From Patescibacteria group bacterium (GTDB taxonomy: Bacteria > Patescibacteriota > Patescibacteriia > UBA2591 > UBA6264): a DNA stretch of 32,000 bases. Location of the stretch: NCBI GenBank assembly GCA_028713575.1, contig JAQTOB010000002.1:30001-62000 (forward strand), in the 5' to 3' direction. Below the pieces are notes generated by a model, which was not told the origin of the DNA, did not search any database, and saw only the letters and a list, made by a program, of their open reading frames with translations. The first letter of the stretch is position 1. The number at the start of each line of letters is the position of its first letter. A program made the position numbers and the translations under genes. Below, in pieces: positions 2,297-26,477 of this stretch.

Positions 2297-3439
2297 ATGA
2301 ACAAAAAATATTTATTTATAAAAGCCATTTCCGTGCTTATCGGCACTATTATCGGAGCGGGAATTTTTGGCTTACCCTATGCTTTTGCCCAAGGCGGGTT
2401 TTTACTCGGCTTATTTTATTTATTGCTTTTAACAGGATTATTTTTAATTGCTAAACTTTGTTATACAGAAATTATTCTTCGCACAAATGATAATTTAGAA
2501 ATGGCTGGTTATGTGGAACGTTATTCGGGTCGCTTAGGCAAAATAATTATTACGCTTTGTTTAATCTTTGGGACTTATGGCGCTTTAACCGCCTATACCA
2601 TTGGGGTGGGAGAATTTCTTTATTCTTTACTTAATCCTATTTTAGGCGGAACGCAAGTATTTTGGTCTATTATTTTTTGGGTCCTGGCCAGCATTTTAAT
2701 TTTTATCGGCATCGGCATTATCAGCCGCATAGAAGTTTTTATGGTTTTCGTTTTAATTTTTATTATTTTTTTTGTTTTTTTAAAATGTTTTCCTTATTTT
2801 AATTTTCAAAATTTAAAGTATGTTAATTTAGATTGGCGAATAATTTTTTTCCCCTATGGTCCGATTCTTTTCGCCCTGGGAGGAGCTTCGGCTATTCCAA
2901 CCATGAGACGGATTTTAAAAGATAAAACTTATCTTTTAAAAAGGGCCGTGATAATTGGATTTTTTATTCCCGTAATCATATATTTGATTTTTGCCTTTAT
3001 TGTAGTCGGAGTGAGCGGGAAACAAACTTCGGAAACTGCTTTAATCGGCCTGACTAATTTTACAGACGGCAATCTTTTATTAATTGGTGGAGTTTTTGGC
3101 ATCTTTGCCATGACAACTTCTTTTTTGGCATTAGGACATTTTTTAAAAGAATTGTTTCATCGCGATTATCATTTGCCTAAAATTGTTGCCGGATTGTCAG
3201 TAGTAAGCGTTCCTTTGATTTTTTTCCTTATAGGTATGAGAAGCTTTATTACTGTCATTAGTTTTGCCGGCGGCGTTCTTTCTGGTATGCAAGGGATAAT
3301 TTTGATTGTCACTTATTATCGGGCAAAGAAAAAGGGCGATCGCCAGCCGGAATTTAGTTTTAATTTACCTCGTTTGCTGGCTTATTTTATTTATTTTTTA
3401 TTTATTTTCGGTATTGTATATCAATTTATTTATGTCTGA
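2297..3439 (+). CDS. Amino-acid permease (Aa_trans / Trp-Tyr permease-like, about 11 TM)
   Basis: Polytopic membrane protein with N-terminal IGAGIFGLPYAF motif typical of this transporter family. Confidence 0.65.
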   Translation: MNKKYLFIKAISVLIGTIIGAGIFGLPYAFAQGGFLLGLFYLLLLTGLFLIAKLCYTEIILRTNDNLEMAGYVERYSGRLGKIIITLCLIFGTYGALTAYTIGVGEFLYSLLNPILGGTQVFWSIIFWVLASILIFIGIGIISRIEVFMVFVLIFIIFFVFLKCFPYFNFQNLKYVNLDWRIIFFPYGPILFALGGASAIPTMRRILKDKTYLLKRAVIIGFFIPVIIYLIFAFIVVGVSGKQTSETALIGLTNFTDGNLLLIGGVFGIFAMTTSFLALGHFLKELFHRDYHLPKIVAGLSVVSVPLIFFLIGMRSFITVISFAGGVLSGMQGIILIVTYYRAKKKGDRQPEFSFNLPRLLAYFIYFLFIFGIVYQFIYV

Positions 3440-4478
3440 TAAATTAATTTTAGTTTTAAACGCCGGTAGTACTTCCTTTAAGTACAAATTATTTAATGAA
3501 CAATTAAAAACGATTAAAGAAGATAATTATACGCACTTAGACGGAAAGACCAATAGTCATTTAGAGGTTTTTCGCAAGATTCTTAGAGAAATCGGGGATT
3601 TGACTGATATTAAAATTGTAGGCCATCGGATTGTGCACGGTGGCGGAAAATTTTTTCAACCAACATTGATTGATGATAATAATTTTCAAGAATTAAAGTC
3701 ATTCAATCATTTAGCGCCTTTGCACAATCCTTATAATTTGCAAATTTTAGAATCTTCCCGCGTCTATTTGTCTCATGCTCCGCAATTAGCTGTTTTTGAT
3801 ACGGCTTTTTTTATTTCTCTTCCTTTTAAAGCCAAAATTTATGCCCTGCCTCTGGAGTATTATGAAAAACATCATTTACAACGTTTTGGGTTTCATGGTA
3901 TTTCGCATCAATCAGCGGCCGAACAGGCAAGAGAAAAATTAAAAAGAAAATTAAATACTCTTAATTTAATTATTTGTCATTTAGGCGGCGGTTGTAGTGT
4001 GACGGCGGTTAAAAACGGTCAAGCCATTGATACAAGCATGGGGTTTACCCCTATGGACGGATTAGTCATGATGACTAGGTCGGGCAATATTGATCCGGGC
4101 ATAATTCTTTATTTACATGAAAATTTTAACATGCCTTTTTCGGAAATCAATTATTTATTAAATAATCAGTCAGGCATAAAAGGTTTGTTTGGCAATTCCG
4201 ATTTTAAAAAACTTTTAAAAGCGGTTAAAAGGGGAAACAAAAAAGCCAAACTGGCTTTTGATATTTTTGTTTATCATGTTCAAAAATATATTGGCGCTTA
4301 TGCCGCGATTTTAGGAAAAATCGACGCTTTGGTTTTTACTGGCGCTATTGGTAACGGCGACCCTTATACTCGCAAAAAAATTTGCCAATTGGAAATGTTG
4401 AGAAAAATTAAAATTTTAAATTTTAAGGCCGACGAAGAAAAGGTCATTGCTCAAGAATGTCAAAAATTATTAATTTGA
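3432..4478 (+). CDS. ackA: Acetate kinase
   Basis: LVLNAGSTSFKY, HRIVHGG, FDTAF, RFGFHGISH, CHLGGGCSVTA, FTGAIGN motifs. Start moved from 3306 to the ATG at 3432 (MSDKLILVLNAGS). ATGTCTGA gives an 8-nt overlap with the permease stop. Confidence 0.85.
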   Translation: MSDKLILVLNAGSTSFKYKLFNEQLKTIKEDNYTHLDGKTNSHLEVFRKILREIGDLTDIKIVGHRIVHGGGKFFQPTLIDDNNFQELKSFNHLAPLHNPYNLQILESSRVYLSHAPQLAVFDTAFFISLPFKAKIYALPLEYYEKHHLQRFGFHGISHQSAAEQAREKLKRKLNTLNLIICHLGGGCSVTAVKNGQAIDTSMGFTPMDGLVMMTRSGNIDPGIILYLHENFNMPFSEINYLLNNQSGIKGLFGNSDFKKLLKAVKRGNKKAKLAFDIFVYHVQKYIGAYAAILGKIDALVFTGAIGNGDPYTRKKICQLEMLRKIKILNFKADEEKVIAQECQKLLI

Positions 4479-10143: not shown

Positions 10144-10176
10144 ATAAGCCCCGGAAACGATTTCCGGGGCGCTTAT
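10144..10176. terminator. Bidirectional rho-independent terminator between convergent murF and elp3
   Basis: GCCCCGGAAA-CGA-TTTCCGGGGC 10-bp stem, extended by ATAA/TTAT, T-rich on both strands. Confidence 0.6.
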
Positions 10177-20112: not shown

Positions 20113-22662
20113 ATGGGGTTAGATATTTATTCAAATATTTTGTATTGGCGCGAGCGAGGATTTTTTAATCTTAAATTTTGGCTCCCTTTTTTTGTTTTAA
20201 TATTATTTTTAATTTTATTCTTCTTTTTAAAAAAATATTTAAGAAGGTCGGCTCAATATAAGTTTTCTTTTCAGCGCGCCATTCTTTTAGTCACGGTGCC
20301 TAAGATAAAAATGGATAAAGAAGAAAAAGAGAAAACCCCCAAAGAAATGTTGCAACCAATAGAAAATTTTTTTGATAACATTGGCGGATTAAAAGCACAA
20401 AAAGGATTTAAAACTTGGTTTTTAGGCCGTTCAGACCATTTTTCTTTTGAAATACTTTCAGACAAGCAGGGTATTATTTCTTTTTATGTGGTCGTGCCGC
20501 GAAATTTGCAAACGTTTTTTGAACAACAAGTTCACGCGCAATATCCAGCGGCGCAAATAGAAGAAGTAGATGACTATAATGTTTTTTTACCCCACGGAGA
20601 AGTTGTTTGCGCCAGTCTTACCTTAAGAACTTATTCCATGTTCCCAATTAAAACCTATAATAAGACAGAAACTGATCCTTTAAATGCCATTACTAATTCT
20701 TTGAGCCGAATTGCGGAGGAAGATTCAGCCGCGATTCAAATTATGGTTCGTTCGGCTCAGTCAGGTTGGCGTCAACCCGGCATCAAAGTTGCCCTAGAAA
20801 TGCAACAAGGCAAAAAATTATCAGAGGCGCTAAAAAATATGAGCGGAGGTTTATCAAAATTTTTTAGTTTTTTAACCGATTTTATTTTTCCCAAATCGCA
20901 AAAAAAACAAGATAAAGAATTAGATAAGCCGCATCAACTTTCACCCATGGAACAAGAAGTCGTTAAGACCATTGAAGAAAAGGCGAGCAAGGCCGGAATG
21001 GATGTAAATATTAGAATTGTGGTTTCTGCCCGCGATAAAGGATTGGCTGAAAGCTATTTAGATAACATTGTTAATGCTTTTGCCCAATATACGGGTTATG
21101 AATACGGCAATGGATTTAAAAAAGCAAAAATGAATAAAAACGAGATTATTAGGAATTTTATCTACCGGAATTTTAATGAGAATATAAGTTTTGTTTTAAA
21201 CACAGAAGAAATGGCCAGTATTTATCATTTTCCATTGCCGACAACAGAAACGCCAAATATTCGTTGGTTAATGGCGAAAAAAGCGCCGGCGCCGATTAAC
21301 ATTCCGCACGAAGGCTTGTTTTTAGGTTACAATATCTATCGCGGTCAAAAGACAGCCATTAAAATTAAAAGAGAGGACCGTCGTCGACATATGTATGTTA
21401 TTGGTATGACCGGTACAGGCAAATCTTGGTTTGCCGAAGGCTTGGCTATGCAAGATATTGCCAATGGCGAGGGTATCTGCTTTATTGACCCGCATGGAGA
21501 CGCTATTGGTCATATTTTAGAAAGAATTCCCAAGAATAGAGCCGAAGACGTAATTCTTTTTGACCCGGGCGACTTAACTCGGCCATTAGGATTGAATATG
21601 TTAGAATATGATTTTTCAGAACAAAAAACTTTTGTCATTAATGAAATCATGAATATTTTTGACAAGCTTTACGATTTGCGCGCAACCGGTGGTCCGATTT
21701 TTGAACAATATTTTAAAAACGCTTGTCATTTGGTTATGGATGATATAGCTTCAGGTTCTACTTTATTGGAAATTCCTAAAGTTTTAGCTGATGATGAATT
21801 TAGAAGATATAAGCTTTCCAAATGCAAAACCTTAATGGTTAAAGAATTTTGGGAAAAACAAGCTTTAAAGGCGGGGGGTGAAGCTTCTTTACAAAATATG
21901 GTTCCTTATATTACTAGTAAATTGACACCGTTTTTGACTAATGAATTTATGCAACCTATTATTTCCCAGCAAAAAAGCAGTTTGAATTTTAGAGAGGCCA
22001 TGGATAATAAAAAAATAATTTTAGCTAAATTATCTAAAGGTAAAATTGGTGATACCAATGCCTATTTGTTGGGAATGATTATTGTTGGCAAGATTTTAAT
22101 GTCTGCTTTGAGTCGTGGAGATATGCCGGAAGAAAAAAGAAATGATTTTTATTTATACATTGATGAATTTCAAAACTTTTTAACCGAAAGTATGCAGGTC
22201 ATTTTATCCGAAGCGAGAAAATACCGTTTATGTTTGAATATTATTCACCAGTACATCGGCCAGTTGGTTAAAAATAGTGATACTAAATTTAAGGACTCCA
22301 TTTTTGGCAACGTGGGGACAAAAATAGCCTTTCGTATCGGCGTGGACGATGCTGAAGATTTGACTAAAGAATTTGCCCCGGTTTTTAATGAATACGACTT
22401 TTTAAATATGCCTCAATATAGCGCTTTTGTAAAACTTTTGATTGACAATGCCAATCCGCCGGGTTTTAATATTTCTACGGTTCCTTTTGACCAAATCCCC
22501 GGAGTGCCACCGGCTAATCCGGAAATCGCAAAAATTATTAAGGAATTATCTCAATTAAAATACGGCAAAACTTTACCCATGATTGAACGGGAAATAAGTC
22601 AAAGAAGTCAAATTATTAATCAATTAAAGCAAACAACAGATGGTAATTTATCGCAAATATAG
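20113..22662 (+). CDS. Membrane-anchored P-loop ATPase, type IV secretion coupling-protein-like (TraD/VirD4/TrwB superfamily)
   Basis: N-terminal TM helix, Walker A GMTGTGKS, DPHGD, Walker B-like LYIDEFQNF, RKYRLCLNIIHQYIGQL block as in TraG/TraD C-terminal ATPase domains. Confidence 0.7.
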   Translation: MGLDIYSNILYWRERGFFNLKFWLPFFVLILFLILFFFLKKYLRRSAQYKFSFQRAILLVTVPKIKMDKEEKEKTPKEMLQPIENFFDNIGGLKAQKGFKTWFLGRSDHFSFEILSDKQGIISFYVVVPRNLQTFFEQQVHAQYPAAQIEEVDDYNVFLPHGEVVCASLTLRTYSMFPIKTYNKTETDPLNAITNSLSRIAEEDSAAIQIMVRSAQSGWRQPGIKVALEMQQGKKLSEALKNMSGGLSKFFSFLTDFIFPKSQKKQDKELDKPHQLSPMEQEVVKTIEEKASKAGMDVNIRIVVSARDKGLAESYLDNIVNAFAQYTGYEYGNGFKKAKMNKNEIIRNFIYRNFNENISFVLNTEEMASIYHFPLPTTETPNIRWLMAKKAPAPINIPHEGLFLGYNIYRGQKTAIKIKREDRRRHMYVIGMTGTGKSWFAEGLAMQDIANGEGICFIDPHGDAIGHILERIPKNRAEDVILFDPGDLTRPLGLNMLEYDFSEQKTFVINEIMNIFDKLYDLRATGGPIFEQYFKNACHLVMDDIASGSTLLEIPKVLADDEFRRYKLSKCKTLMVKEFWEKQALKAGGEASLQNMVPYITSKLTPFLTNEFMQPIISQQKSSLNFREAMDNKKIILAKLSKGKIGDTNAYLLGMIIVGKILMSALSRGDMPEEKRNDFYLYIDEFQNFLTESMQVILSEARKYRLCLNIIHQYIGQLVKNSDTKFKDSIFGNVGTKIAFRIGVDDAEDLTKEFAPVFNEYDFLNMPQYSAFVKLLIDNANPPGFNISTVPFDQIPGVPPANPEIAKIIKELSQLKYGKTLPMIEREISQRSQIINQLKQTTDGNLSQI

Positions 22663-23880: not shown

Positions 23881-25062
23881 ATGAAAACAAACGTTGACGA
23901 AAAACAAATTAAAGGATTATTAACTCGAGGAGTTAATGAAGTAATTGATTTTAGTCATTTAAGAAAACGTTTGTTATCGGGAGAAAAATTAAGAATCAAA
24001 TTAGGCATTGACCCTACCAGCCCTCATATTCATTTAGGAAGGGCGGTTTCTCTTCTTAAATTAAGAGATTTTCAAAATCTTGGGCACAAGGTGGTATTTA
24101 TTATTGGCGATTTTACTGGTGTTGTTGGCGACACTTCTGACAAAGAAAGCGAACGCCCCATGCTTTTTAAAAAACAGGTGGAAGAGAATATGAAAACGTA
24201 TATCAGGCAAGCTGGGAAAATTTTAGACATGGAAAAAACCGAAATTTGTCATAATTCTACGTGGCTAAAAAAACTTGGCTATGAAGAAATAGGAAAACAG
24301 GCGAATCAGTTTTCTTTAGCTGAGTTCATCAATCGGGAAAACATTAAAAAGCGACTAAACTTGGGGACCAGGGTTTCTTTAAGAGAACTTCTTTATCCTT
24401 TAATGCAGGGATATGACAGCGTTGAAGTGAAAGCTGACGTGGAGCTCGGGGGAACAGACCAGAGATTTAATTTGCTGGCAGGTCGGACCTTGCAGGAATA
24501 TTATGGTCAAAAACCTCAGGACGTAATGATGACTAATCTTATTTTAGGTACGGACGGCAGAAAAATGAGTTCCAGTTGGGGTAATACTATCAATATTGTG
24601 GACAAACCAAGTGAAATGTTCGGTAAAATAATGAGTTTAACCGATGATTTAATCATAACCTATTTTGAACACTGCACCCGGGTTGATATGGATAAGGTGA
24701 AAAAATATAGCGAAGAATTGAAGGCCGGTAAAAATCCCAAAGATGTCAAAATGGATTTAGCTTATGAGATTACCAAGATATACTGGGGAGAAAAAAAATC
24801 AGAAGAAGCCAAAGATTATTTCATCACTGTTTTTCAAAAAAAGGGAATTCCGCAAGAAATATCGAAAATGAAATTGGCGAACAAAAATATTCTTGAGATT
24901 TTGGTTTTAAGTAAATTGGCAAAAAGTAAAAGCGATGCCAGAAGGCTAATAGGTCAAAAAGGCGTAACAGTTGATGGAAAAACAATAGAATCAACAGAAG
25001 AAACAGTTAAAAAGGGTAGCATTATCCAAAAAGGAAAAAGATATTTTGTAAAAATCATTTAG
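23881..25062 (+). CDS. tyrS: Tyrosine--tRNA ligase
   Basis: GIDPTSPHIHLGR (HIGH), KMSSS (KMSKS), C-terminal S4-like domain. Confidence 0.9.
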   Translation: MKTNVDEKQIKGLLTRGVNEVIDFSHLRKRLLSGEKLRIKLGIDPTSPHIHLGRAVSLLKLRDFQNLGHKVVFIIGDFTGVVGDTSDKESERPMLFKKQVEENMKTYIRQAGKILDMEKTEICHNSTWLKKLGYEEIGKQANQFSLAEFINRENIKKRLNLGTRVSLRELLYPLMQGYDSVEVKADVELGGTDQRFNLLAGRTLQEYYGQKPQDVMMTNLILGTDGRKMSSSWGNTINIVDKPSEMFGKIMSLTDDLIITYFEHCTRVDMDKVKKYSEELKAGKNPKDVKMDLAYEITKIYWGEKKSEEAKDYFITVFQKKGIPQEISKMKLANKNILEILVLSKLAKSKSDARRLIGQKGVTVDGKTIESTEETVKKGSIIQKGKRYFVKII

Positions 25063-25095
25063 ATGCCGGGTCGTCTAACTTGCCCCGCCAATTTT

Positions 25096-25431
25096 ATGTC
25101 ATATCTTTATATTTTAAAAAATAGATTAGGCAGGCATTATATCGGGATTACTAAATTAGAACCAAGAGAAAGATTAAAACGACATAATCAAGGAGACGTT
25201 TATTCAACAAAATCCGGGAGGTCCTGGAAAATAATTTGTCTAGAAAAATTTGAAACTCTTAAAGAAGCAAGAGAAATGGAAAAAATGATAAAGAGATGGA
25301 AAGGCGGAAATGCATTTAAAAAGTTTCTCTGCAAAACTGCCGGGTCGTCTAATGGCAGGACAACGGATTCTGGCTCCGTTTATCTTGGTTCGAATCCAAG
25401 CCCGGCAGTTTTGCAGAAAAACAAGATATAA
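25096..25431 (+). CDS. GIY-YIG nuclease-family protein (small UPF0213/YhbQ-like type); 3' end uncertain
   Basis: MSYLYILKN..GRHYIGIT..RLKRHNQG...EAREMEKMIKRWK. No in-frame stop before the tRNA, so the last ~30 codons are translated tRNA sequence. Confidence 0.7.
   Translation: MSYLYILKNRLGRHYIGITKLEPRERLKRHNQGDVYSTKSGRSWKIICLEKFETLKEAREMEKMIKRWKGGNAFKKFLCKTAGSSNGRTTDSGSVYLGSNPSPAVLQKNKI
25338..25408 (+). tRNA. tRNA-Gln(CTG)
   Basis: Hand-folded: acceptor TGCCGGG/CCCGGCA (U1-A72), D-arm GTCT-AATGGCA-GGAC, anticodon stem ACGGA/TCCGT with loop TTCTGGC, T-arm CTTGG-TTCGAAT-CCAAG, discriminator G. Confidence 0.9.
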
Positions 25432-25754
25432 ATTTGGCGGGGTGAACAGGACAACGGATTCTGGCTTCGTTTATCTTGGTTCGACTTGTCCCGTTAAAGG
25501 CGGGAATCCAATCTTGGCAGCCATCCTTCGCCAAGGCTACGAAATGGCTAAAACTATGTTGTTGTATTTGTTGCTTTGAATTTTAGGTAGTCCGGAACTT
25601 TAGTGAAGGATACCAAGCCCGGCAGTTTTTTATTGCTTCCGTTCCTCAAAACCTTCAGCCCGCTATATAAATAGCGACGAAGACACTGATGCTGAGGGAA
25701 GCGCCGACGAACGAGAGTGAAGAGGGACTGAGCTTAACAGAGCGAATGTAATTA

Positions 25755-25968
25755 ACTTAAGAAAGGGGTCTGTCCCCAAAAAATGCCTTTCTAAAATCCT
25801 TATCAGTGTTGGATTTTAAGACGATTTTTAAAAAATAGTCGAATATCGACTACTTTAGAAAAATTAAATTCACCAAAATGGGACCGCCTTTGGAAAATGG
25901 CATACAGGGGCCGGACATAGATTTTTTAAAAGTCAGACCCCTTAAAGGGAAGATTGAGGAGGTTTAAC
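25755..25968 (+). repeat. 214-bp structured direct repeat, copy 1
   Basis: Aligns without gaps to 27685-27898 (offset 1930 bp) with 8 differences, all transitions. Confidence 0.9.
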
Positions 25969-26144
25969 ATCTGATGTGATGGTGAGTACCTACGAGGTGA
26001 GACCTCGTAGGGGTGATGAAAAATTCCCGTTTTTGTTTTTTGGCCCAATTTCGCCTCTATCTTTTACAGGGTCGCCACTTTTTATTGAGGTATATAAAAA
26101 TACGAAATTATTTAAATAATTTGCGGATTAAAAAATTTAATTTT

Positions 26145-26477
26145 ATGAAAACAATCAAATGGTTTGCTCGAATAATCGCATTATGTATTCTGGTGTTCGC
26201 TTTGCCGTTTTATTTTGGCTACGGTAATCCATTGCCGTTTGCTAATCCGAATTATTCTTTGTGGGAGAATGTTGCACTATCTATGATGCCACTGGTTTTT
26301 ATCGGTTTAGCCTTGGGCTGGAAGTATCCAAAAATCGCAGGCTGGCTTATTATTAGTGCAATTGCAATTGGTTTTATCGTTGGACTTTTAACAGAAGCAA
26401 ACCTCAGTATCAATCTGGCAGTTCCTATCATTCCAGGAATTTTGTATTTAATAGATGGGTATAAAAAAAATGAATAA
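26145..26477 (+). CDS. Small integral membrane protein (110 aa, 3-4 TM)
   Basis: The hydrophobic ORF core starts at MKTIKWFARIIAL (ATG 26145). The upstream part of the ORF, from 26013, is AT-rich and basic, so it is probably not coding. Confidence 0.55.
   Translation: MKTIKWFARIIALCILVFALPFYFGYGNPLPFANPNYSLWENVALSMMPLVFIGLALGWKYPKIAGWLIISAIAIGFIVGLLTEANLSINLAVPIIPGILYLIDGYKKNE

Follow-up and report, generated by a model that had tools for sequence, protein, structure and literature searches.

The locus described here raises the question of how a transfer RNA (tRNA) gene comes to be interrupted twice by related sequences, and whether such interruptions are removed from the RNA or were put into the DNA of a copy that the cell can do without. 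It lies in a stretch of 32,000 nucleotides from a contig of a Patescibacteria group bacterium (JAQTOB010000002.1, positions 30,001 to 62,000), which we call the window. Behind the gene tyrS stands a tRNA-Gln gene whose D loop holds a long insertion, with an open reading frame (ORF) for a small GIY-YIG nuclease and a second, intact tRNA-Gln, and whose T loop holds a short hairpin. Below, outer refers to the broken gene and inner to the intact tRNA within it. In our judgement the probable explanation is a selfish nuclease cassette that acts at the DNA level and brings a replacement tRNA, together with an ORF-less palindromic derivative, both residing in a disrupted and redundant tRNA-Gln gene.

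There is indeed an interrupted gene: its 5' fragment and its middle part match the intact tRNA-Gln at 15 of 15 and 37 of 38 positions. An earlier sequence-only reading of the window had pointed out the likeness of the two insertions, and what it reported of the layout holds. The first 13 nucleotides of the long form (25079-25091, CTTGCCCCGCCAA) and of the short form (25485-25497, CTTGTCCCGTTAA) agree at 10 positions, and all three mismatches are C/T. The long form is closed by 12 base pairs, two of them G.U, between 25080-25091 (TTGCCCCGCCAA) and 25434-25445 (TTGGCGGGGTGA); these enclose 342 nucleotides with the ORF (ATG at 25096, GIY-YIG domain) and the inner tRNA (25338-25408). A repeat finder extends the stem to arms of 26 nucleotides (25083-25108 and 25417-25442) that are 81% complementary. 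The short form folds back on itself as a hairpin (25489-25505, TCCCGTT-AAA-GGCGGGA), and deletion of 25485-25505 leaves a normal T loop in which GGTTCGA is joined to ATCC. An assembly artefact is ruled out by the independent assembly GCA_028711035.1, which has the identical arrangement with two substitutions in 661 aligned bases. In four contigs from other sequencing runs the cassette ORF likewise begins right behind an identical tyrS; these contigs end about 320 nucleotides downstream and cover only the start of the cassette, not the remainder of the arrangement.

Because the shared motif was derived from the window's own two copies, the window alone cannot rule out chance. The independent genomes do: the motif is present beyond the window, with the same termini at the same tRNA-Gln site in related genomes, and the likeness is more than chance. 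We first examined 20 Patescibacteria loci (labelled L001 and so on), and in all 20 a homologous ORF is followed by an intact tRNA-Gln. Most of the roughly 20 loci share a common layout, which consists of positions 1-15 of tRNA-Gln, CTTGCCCCGCCAAATTT-ATG, a GIY-YIG protein of about 81 amino acids, the intact tRNA-Gln, AAATTTGGCGGGGTGAA and the remainder of the outer tRNA. The order within the cassette is 5' terminus, nuclease ORF, replacement tRNA and 3' terminus. The insert is 363-376 nucleotides long and has the same termini in the 11 loci measured, and its ATG usually lies 17 nucleotides in (range +13 to +29). Of the 20 loci, 14 have the 5' terminus at an identical D-loop junction, and a 3' terminus that matches it, GGCGGGGTGAA, occurs as well. 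With a single exception, the motif matches in the examined loci fall within a few hundred bases of the cassette. Table 1 gives the features of the window and the places at which hairpins of the same kind sit in the outer tRNA copies of other loci.

Table 1. Features of the broken tRNA-Gln locus in the window, and sites of hairpins in outer tRNA copies (tRNA numbering).
Feature	Position	Strand	Evidence or loci
tyrS	23881-25062	+	ends 1 nt upstream of the fragmented tRNA-Gln gene
Outer tRNA-Gln 5' fragment (positions 1-15)	25064-25078	+	15/15 identical to 25338-25352 (repeat D4); same fragment before the cassette in related loci
Type-1 cassette, long form, 368 nt, in D loop	25079-25446	+	boundaries from alignment to inner tRNAs
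Cassette 5' terminus, CTTG + CCCCGCC + AATTTTATG..., left terminal inverted repeat arm; holds start codon 25096-25098	25079-25108	+	inverted repeat I3
GIY-YIG nuclease ORF	25096-25431	+	Pfam PF01541; domain ~25096-25338
Acceptor-stem extension, 5' strand (last ORF codons)	25323-25337	+	inverted repeat I2; 14-15 bp
Intact inner (replacement) tRNA-Gln(CTG)	25338-25408	+	ARAGORN; Rfam RF00005, 59 bits
Acceptor-stem extension, 3' strand	25409-25422	+	inverted repeat and conserved pairing
Cassette 3' terminus, ...ATAAATTTGGCGGGGTGAA, right terminal inverted repeat arm	25417-25446	+	translated as 'FGGVK' in homologous ORF tails
Outer tRNA-Gln middle: D-loop end, D-stem 3' strand, anticodon arm, T-arm 5' half	25447-25484	+	37/38 vs 25356-25393 (D1)
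Short ORF-less form, 21 nt, CTTG-TCCCGTT-AAA-GGCGGGA, in T loop between GGTTCGA and ATCC	25485-25505	+	
Diverged tRNA 3' end + encoded CCA (ATCCAATCTTGGCAG+CCA)	25506-25523	+	repeat D2, 82% identity
Hairpin-rich spacer ending ...AACTTTAGTGAAGGAT	25524-25612	+	inverted repeat I1, 25523-25553 / 25581-25611 (31-nt arms)
Third tRNA-Gln 3' end (CCAAGCCCGGCAG + TTTT)	25613-25629	+	D3: 17/17 vs inner tRNA 3' end + trailer; I14
Outer-tRNA hairpin	at 9/10		L004
Outer-tRNA hairpin	at 33/34 or 34/35 (anticodon loop)		L002, L004, L005, L007, L012, L015
Outer-tRNA hairpin	at 52/53		L007, L015
Outer-tRNA hairpin	in T loop		window, L011

The cassette is always found inside or beside a tRNA gene (Gln, Pro or Ser), with tRNA sequence on both sides. 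Homologues of the nuclease from Chitinophagaceae/Ferruginibacter, 38-47% identical, sit between tRNA-Pro genes, where the order is a normal tRNA-Pro, a spacer of about 43 nucleotides, an ORF with its stop codon inside the next tRNA, and then that tRNA, a hairpin-armed tRNA-Pro. In place of its D arm it has GCCCCGC(C)-loop-(G)GCGGGGC, and the T arm or the variable region is often replaced as well, by TCCCG..CGGGA. Such units form tandem arrays of up to 3-4 (L020-L035, L173, L174) in which the D arm is an 8-bp GC hairpin, and ARAGORN calls the hairpin-armed copies tRNA-Pro of 77-79 nucleotides. Since whole D and T arms have been replaced in these Bacteroidota loci, no excision could restore the tRNA. 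The palindrome adjoins the ORF in both phyla: in Patescibacteria it is next to the start codon, in Bacteroidota next to the stop codon. The same palindromes that accompany the homologues near tRNA-Pro in Chitinophagaceae are found near tRNA-Ser in L048 (1650-2520, minus strand). At that locus the D region of a tRNA-Ser 5' fragment holds two GC hairpins; behind the fragment comes a GIY-YIG ORF whose frame continues into an intact tRNA-Ser, and a degenerate copy of the hairpin-bearing fragment lies downstream.

The product of the window's ORF has a GIY-YIG domain (Pfam PF01541, E = 6e-14) and consists of about 81 amino acids of catalytic domain only, without a separate DNA-binding domain. There is no stop codon before the inner tRNA, and the frame passes through the tRNA to a TAA at 25429-25431. 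The nearest solved structures are those of UPF0213 proteins and of SLX1, a structure-specific nuclease. A PHROG match to 'homing endonuclease' (E = 3e-5) places the protein near phage families of that name. The nuclease is unmatched in NCBIfam and PADLOC, and is therefore not a named component of a defence system. More than 60 homologues in the protein search are also translated through the tRNA, giving the tail AGSSNGRT..YLGSNPSPAA, and many begin with a translated tRNA 5' fragment plus CTTGCCCCGCCAA and end in 'FGGVK', which is translated TTTGGCGGGGTGAA. The wider group of tiny GIY-YIG proteins is large, with more than 7,600 sequence clusters found.

The course of events that we consider probable would start when the cassette (CTTG-CCCCGCC-AAATTT ... 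AAATTT-GGCGGGG-TGAA) invades the D loop and kills the resident tRNA-Gln. The replacement tRNA-Gln, which begins where the nuclease domain ends, would substitute for the broken copy, and because it keeps the host viable the outer copy would be free to decay. The 21-nt hairpin would be the ORF-less form, in which both termini stand back to back around a loop of 3-7 nucleotides. Hairpins would accumulate in the dead outer copy alone, as selection would act against insertions in the inner one. Spread may occur by homing, as for SegB of phage T4, with the nuclease making breaks in tRNA genes that are repaired by copying from the cassette allele, and the conserved tRNA sequence could then provide both the target and the homology arms. 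The GC palindrome (CCCCGCC/GGCGGGG, TCCCGCC/GGCGGGA) is probably the recognition site of the nuclease, which would probably be dimeric; this is the simplest role for it, because the palindrome is sequence-specific and travels with the protein across phyla and tRNA types. Transcription of the cassette may come from the resident tRNA promoter. The stem formed by the termini and a 21-bp helix on the inner tRNA, both described below, could limit translation of the nuclease and release the cargo tRNA, possibly via RNase III. Imprecise junctions, the loss of 2-3 nucleotides and the replacement of arms are as expected for events in DNA.

That the ORF-bearing and the 21-nt forms belong to one insertion family, as had been suggested from the window, is borne out by both termini being common to them. 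The termini of the long form are complementary over 17-20 nucleotides, and short forms hold both of them (CTTG...TGAA). L013 and L177 have a short form, complete as CTTGCCCCGCTAGGGCGGGGTGAA, at the D-loop site where other loci have the long form. Extra GC hairpins of 20-29 nucleotides, built as CTTG-YCCCGC-loop-GCGGGR(-TGAA) or TCCCGCC-loop-GGCGGGA-TAAA, are confined to outer tRNA copies (L002, L004, L005, L007, L011, L012, L015 and L175), and none of the 20 inner tRNAs carries one. One hairpin of L005 retains in its loop 14 nucleotides of recognisable interior, which hints, tentatively, that a short form can come about when a long one suffers an internal deletion. Away from the cassette the 32-kb window has no CTTG-YCCCG hairpins, and across loci they cluster near the cassette. 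We also scanned metagenomes for the short form with the pattern CTTGYCCCGCN{2,8}GCGGGR. Among the matches listed, most are chance matches in GC-rich genomes and L048 alone is informative; for the 16 low-GC matches Rfam gave no ribosomal RNA (rRNA) or other RNA context. No target-site duplication was found at the insertions, which lose 2-3 nucleotides at the D loop and are exact or replacing elsewhere. No known transposase family is present either, the sole ORF of the cassette being the GIY-YIG domain.

How the palindrome is read can be judged from the pattern of change in its stem. Across 46 hairpins (mostly from Bacteroidota, the filter having missed many of those in Patescibacteria), the stem sequence is invariant, the loops are free to vary, and G.U and A.C mispairs are equally frequent at 5 versus 5. 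This combination of invariant stems, variable loops and equal G.U and A.C indicates that the palindrome is read by its sequence, beyond pairing alone. Two other elements, one in another locus and one in the window, may be noted in passing. In L008 an element of about 140 nucleotides (TACTGC.TCGCTTTGCTCACCAG...GACGAAGAG...; 2826-2990, 3400-3500) replaces the anticodon loop of an outer tRNA-Gln fragment and is found again downstream; it is one more type of insertion at this hot spot. The sole other strong GC hairpin of the window, at 10148-10170 (GCCCCGGAAA-cga-TTTCCGGGGC), is terminator-like and unrelated to the CCCGCC family.

An invariant stem of this kind resembles a protein operator, and the hairpins and outer pieces could be built-in cis elements of the cassette (an operator, stabilising hairpins, or devices against processing or charging) and not mobile short forms. 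The T-loop hairpin would then owe its origin to a local event, such as repair that used the neighbouring terminus as template, and transposition would have had no part in it. The homing endonuclease I-TevI offers a precedent, as it represses its own gene via an operator that resembles its homing site. The confinement of the hairpins to the neighbourhood of cassettes would fit, as would the palindrome that always abuts the ORF at its start or stop codon and the D-arm hairpin of otherwise perfect tRNA-Pro copies in the Bacteroidota arrays. However, the number, position and orientation of the hairpins vary from locus to locus (one hairpin of L005 is reversed), which fits repeated independent insertion better, and many hairpins sit in copies that are clearly decaying. 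We regard the cis-element explanation as unlikely.

The sequence-only reading had left room for introns, and on that idea the outer tRNA-Gln is a working gene. Both interruptions would be cut from the precursor, the long one once its terminal stem has folded and the short one as a hairpin, and the exons would be religated or would pair as a split tRNA. This would make the locus a bacterial counterpart of the multi-intron and split tRNAs of archaea, or of the intervening sequences that RNase III excises from rRNA. When both inserts are removed from the window's sequence, ARAGORN does find a cloverleaf with an encoded CCA, which is in favour of removal; the D loop of this cloverleaf consists of 4 nucleotides (AACA) and its T stem contains a mismatch, and with the T-loop hairpin kept, ARAGORN found no tRNA in the outer copy of the window. 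The T-loop hairpin and several of the anticodon-loop hairpins are inserted exactly, as RNA-level removal would have it. The D loop, though, cannot be repaired in this way. The native D loop is AAYGGTA. Both halves are present in 15 loci, and in each of them (G)TAGGAC, where the outer tRNA continues, follows ...GGCGGGGTGAA directly, so that 2-3 bases (Y, G, (G)), G18/G19 included, are absent in 15 of 15. Because these bases are missing from the DNA, excision cannot restore them. In L015 the junction is +2/-2.

The outer copies themselves form a decay series that runs from identity with the inner copy to sequences that are no longer recognisable, which is against their being working genes. In L010 and L023 the outer and inner copies are identical; those of the window, L004, L005, L007, L012 and L015 carry hairpins; and those of L009, L011, L016, L017 and L018 have degenerated severely. 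The outer anticodon, where it can still be read, is the same as the inner one, L014 excepted. There (about 650-710) the outer tRNA-Gln is otherwise well paired and has the anticodon TTA, which would read the UAA stop codon, with TTG in the inner copy; either a pseudogene has mutated here or the tRNA is a potential suppressor.

The transcript does contain conserved helices, and these count in favour of removal at the RNA level. In all 20 loci the acceptor stem of the inner tRNA is extended by 14-17 pairs, in which the final codons of the ORF are matched to the nucleotides that follow the tRNA. RNAalifold gives 14 extension pairs, 12 of them with compensatory double changes, and the extension is kept in L175, where it is non-coding. 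A strand-bias test finds 19 G.U against 9 A.C in the extension, which leans to pairing in the RNA. Acceptor stem and extension together make a 21-bp helix, long enough for RNase III. The terminal stem has 17-20 bp and covers the start codon, with 25079-25108 pairing with 25417-25445 in the minimum free energy (MFE) fold, and the RNA of 25064-25524 as a whole forms a nested design (z = -3.9). These conserved long stems juxtapose the exon ends, and the outermost CTTG/TGAA pairs are G.U, workable on the transcribed strand only.

The MFE fold of 25064-25524 has a 4-bp D stem, a symmetric 3x3 internal loop (AAC/ACA) and a terminal stem of 12+8 bp, with both D-loop junctions opposite each other in the one internal loop. 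The T-loop hairpin is flanked by 9 nucleotides on one side and 2 on the other. The earlier reading had proposed that the junctions be tested for bulge-helix-bulge (BHB) or RNase III-like geometry. The long duplex of 12+8 bp that closes the insertion is of the length (about 20 bp) expected of the stem of an intervening sequence excised by RNase III, and with the 21-bp helix both helices (20-21 bp) are in the RNase III range. We rejected a BHB intron, there being no two 3-nt bulges across a 4-bp helix and no excision that restores the tRNA at the D loop. A group I or group II intron was likewise rejected, as the covariance-model search found no ribozyme core: Rfam, at the gathering threshold and at E <= 10 over 24900-26200, returned the inner tRNA and chance-level matches, in line with the earlier statement that the region lacks such a ribozyme.

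Further points weigh against removal at the RNA level. An intact tRNA-Gln lies inside every supposed intron, and its processing by RNase P would cut the outer precursor. The hairpins of Bacteroidota replace arms and do not interrupt them, and the hairpin stems are kept by sequence, without a G.U bias. With the missing D-loop bases, the decay of the outer copies and the lack of a BHB motif or a ribozyme, the intron interpretation is not supported, and we consider a working, processed outer tRNA-Gln very improbable.

Returning to the cassette as a DNA-level element, its cargo can be seen to be foreign in some of the loci. In L002, L005, L014 and L015 the outer halves pair perfectly with each other and show compensatory differences from the inner tRNA in the acceptor and T stems; the cassette that split this one host gene therefore brought a tRNA from another source. 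Nested layers, two or three deep, are present in L005 and L175. From the nesting, the foreign cargo and the varied contexts we infer that the cassette is mobile.

The window may itself record more than one invasion, as it has three tRNA-Gln 3' ends spaced 105-112 nucleotides apart. The third end (25613-25629) is probably the displaced original one, because 25064-25070 pairs perfectly with it (25619-25625). The end at 25506-25523 would then probably be a replacement 3' end brought by a second, type-2 cassette that is now ORF-less, and the spacer of about 88 nucleotides (25524-25612) may be what is left of such a GIY-YIG cassette of type 2, which would have entered at the T loop and supplied its own 3' end; both assignments are tentative. 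The type-2 nuclease is 30-39% identical to the window's and follows the CCA of a tRNA in L007, L009, L023, L166 and L170. The layout at 25506-25523 matches that of the type-2 cassettes of L007 and L012, and the window is without the type-2 ORF. The end motif of the spacer matches the 3' end of ORF2 in L007 and the hairpin loop of L005. The link between the window and type 2 is tentative because the 9-mer TTTAGTGAA (window 25599) is about as frequent across loci as chance predicts, its location alone being non-random. As a separate observation, a stretch at about 25660-25760 (GCGACGAAGACACTGATGCTGAGGGAAGCGCCGACGAACGAGAG) resembles the structured leaders of the type-2 ORFs that lie downstream of tRNA-Gln (L009, L023, L166, L170; motifs such as TCCCGAG...ACGACGAGGGA), and no ORF follows it in the window.

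Although tRNA genes are the classical integration sites of genomic islands and the three 3' ends would suit either, an integrase-type island with att duplications, or replication slippage or tandem duplication with incidental GC hairpins, can hardly be the explanation, and we rejected the island, because no integrase or recombinase lies in or beside the 368-bp insert (which encodes only the 81-amino-acid nuclease and a tRNA) and none was seen flanking these loci, the repeats are nested and not tandem with the 5' fragment duplicated too, and the same termini and hairpins occur in unrelated genomes of two phyla.

The selfish-cassette explanation that we favour has weak points of its own. The cargo tRNA has the D-loop sequence of the presumed target (it is identical to the outer copy in L010 and L023), and the nuclease should then cut its own cassette. 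There is no established mechanism for inserting a 20-nt palindrome at several positions of a tRNA. The nuclease, with its 81 amino acids and no DNA-binding domain, is unlike SegB or I-TevI, and no relatives were found in the viral collection. Exact insertions exist (the T-loop hairpin of the window, L005, L007, L012), such as an RNA-level process tolerates, and 3 of the 4 substitutions in the window's outer copy yield G.U pairs that would be tolerable in RNA. Finally, we found no allele with an empty site: there are five contigs with this identical tyrS, and each continues with the beginning of the cassette ORF, only L158 spanning the whole. In relatives of the tyrosyl-tRNA synthetase (TyrRS) at 73% identity, no tRNA-Gln lies downstream and synteny is lost.

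Comparison with described elements helps to place the cassette. The closest known system is SegB of phages T4 and T6, a free-standing GIY-YIG homing endonuclease in a tRNA cluster that recognises the DNA of the tRNA T arm and transfers its own gene along with neighbouring tRNA genes (PMC2330249). Furthermore, segB drives the tandem amplification of segments made of tRNA and segB, and is widely linked to tRNA genes in phages (PMC13096335). In both cases a GIY-YIG gene is embedded among tRNA genes, and the amplification by SegB parallels the Bacteroidota arrays of 3-4 units. However, SegB is a phage protein with a DNA-binding region, whereas the protein here is an 81-amino-acid catalytic domain encoded on cellular chromosomes and nearer in sequence to UPF0213/SLX1 than to the Seg proteins. 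SegB also lies between tRNA genes, and our cassette lies inside one and brings a complete tRNA as its substitute. Descriptions of SegB mention neither GC-palindrome termini nor hairpin derivatives without an ORF, and both are present here.

Carrying a spare part of the target has a precedent in fungal mitochondria, where endonuclease ORFs can arrive with a replacement piece of the target gene, as in the GIY-YIG insertion of Allomyces atp6. As in our loci, a nuclease and a foreign gene copy sit in an essential gene, and the displaced resident part is left downstream as a pseudogene. The Allomyces case concerns a protein gene of an organelle, whereas here a bacterial tRNA gene is the target and a whole copy is nested inside the old one.

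Small mobile GC palindromes are known as well, among them the GC clusters of yeast mitochondria, the double-hairpin elements of Allomyces, the palindromic elements of Rickettsia, and the repetitive extragenic palindromic (REP) sequences that go with RAYT. Like ours, they are short GC-rich hairpins in AT-rich genomes that land inside RNA or protein genes. The conserved tetranucleotide beside the REP hairpin and the dedicated nuclease or transposase are a further likeness. Unlike these palindromes, the hairpins of about 20 nucleotides described here are confined to tRNA copies near a GIY-YIG gene and have their termini in common with a long form, and the associated enzyme is a GIY-YIG protein whereas REP sequences use an HUH (RAYT) transposase.

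The multi-intron, split and transposing intron-bearing tRNAs of archaea (Fujishima et al., as cited in PMC10714607) are similar in having related short sequences at non-canonical positions (D, anticodon and T loops), with ORF-less copies that look transposed. The archaeal introns have a BHB motif, are spliced precisely by EndA and occur in sole gene copies, whereas our loci lack the BHB motif, have imprecise junctions and always contain a working duplicate, and the host is a bacterium. In the full-text literature searched, the arrangement is not described for Patescibacteria or Bacteroidota.

Some other features of the window can be given briefly. The product of tyrS is a TyrRS of bacterial type, which together with DnaX shows the organism to be a bacterium. 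No promoter or terminator signal above shuffle expectation was found in a scan for promoters and terminators. An ORF of 849 amino acids at 20113-22662, upstream of dnaX, has DUF87 and TraG-D_C domains (Pfam) and is a conjugation- or secretion-type ATPase close to the tRNA hot spot.

What this arrangement stands for is a strategy by which a selfish element could sit in an essential gene of the single-copy type without splicing, by bringing a spare copy with it. The layout of a tRNA within a tRNA recurs in Patescibacteria, with a related form in Bacteroidota. It ties a family of tiny GIY-YIG proteins to tRNA genes and to a specific GC palindrome, and thus offers a substrate hypothesis that can be tested. 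There are practical consequences for annotation. Gene callers fuse the ORFs to translated tRNA (AGSSNGRT...SNPSPAA), sometimes with a tRNA fragment at the N-terminus as well, which is a systematic artefact in public protein sets; tRNA finders take the hairpin-armed pseudo-tRNAs for genuine tRNA-Pro; and assemblies break at these repeats. For those who search for introns, the locus is a reminder that related interruptions at several tRNA loops can come from insertion of DNA into a redundant copy.

We also put forward, as a possibility that falls short of an even chance, that these loci represent a new class of bacterial mobile element. Its autonomous form would be the cassette of about 370 bp, a minimal SLX1/UPF0213-like GIY-YIG nuclease with a tRNA, and its non-autonomous form the palindrome of about 20 nucleotides with the same termini. 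Recognition by the nuclease would depend on structure in addition to sequence, its target being either the palindrome or the DNA of a tRNA gene in an extruded cloverleaf; it would act at tRNA loop positions, and the element would spread across phyla with tRNA sequence serving as both target and homology arm. If this is true, it would give a function to thousands of small ORFs that are now listed as 'GIY-YIG nuclease family' without one, and it would explain the tRNA-like genes with hairpin D and T arms that are at present called tRNAs.

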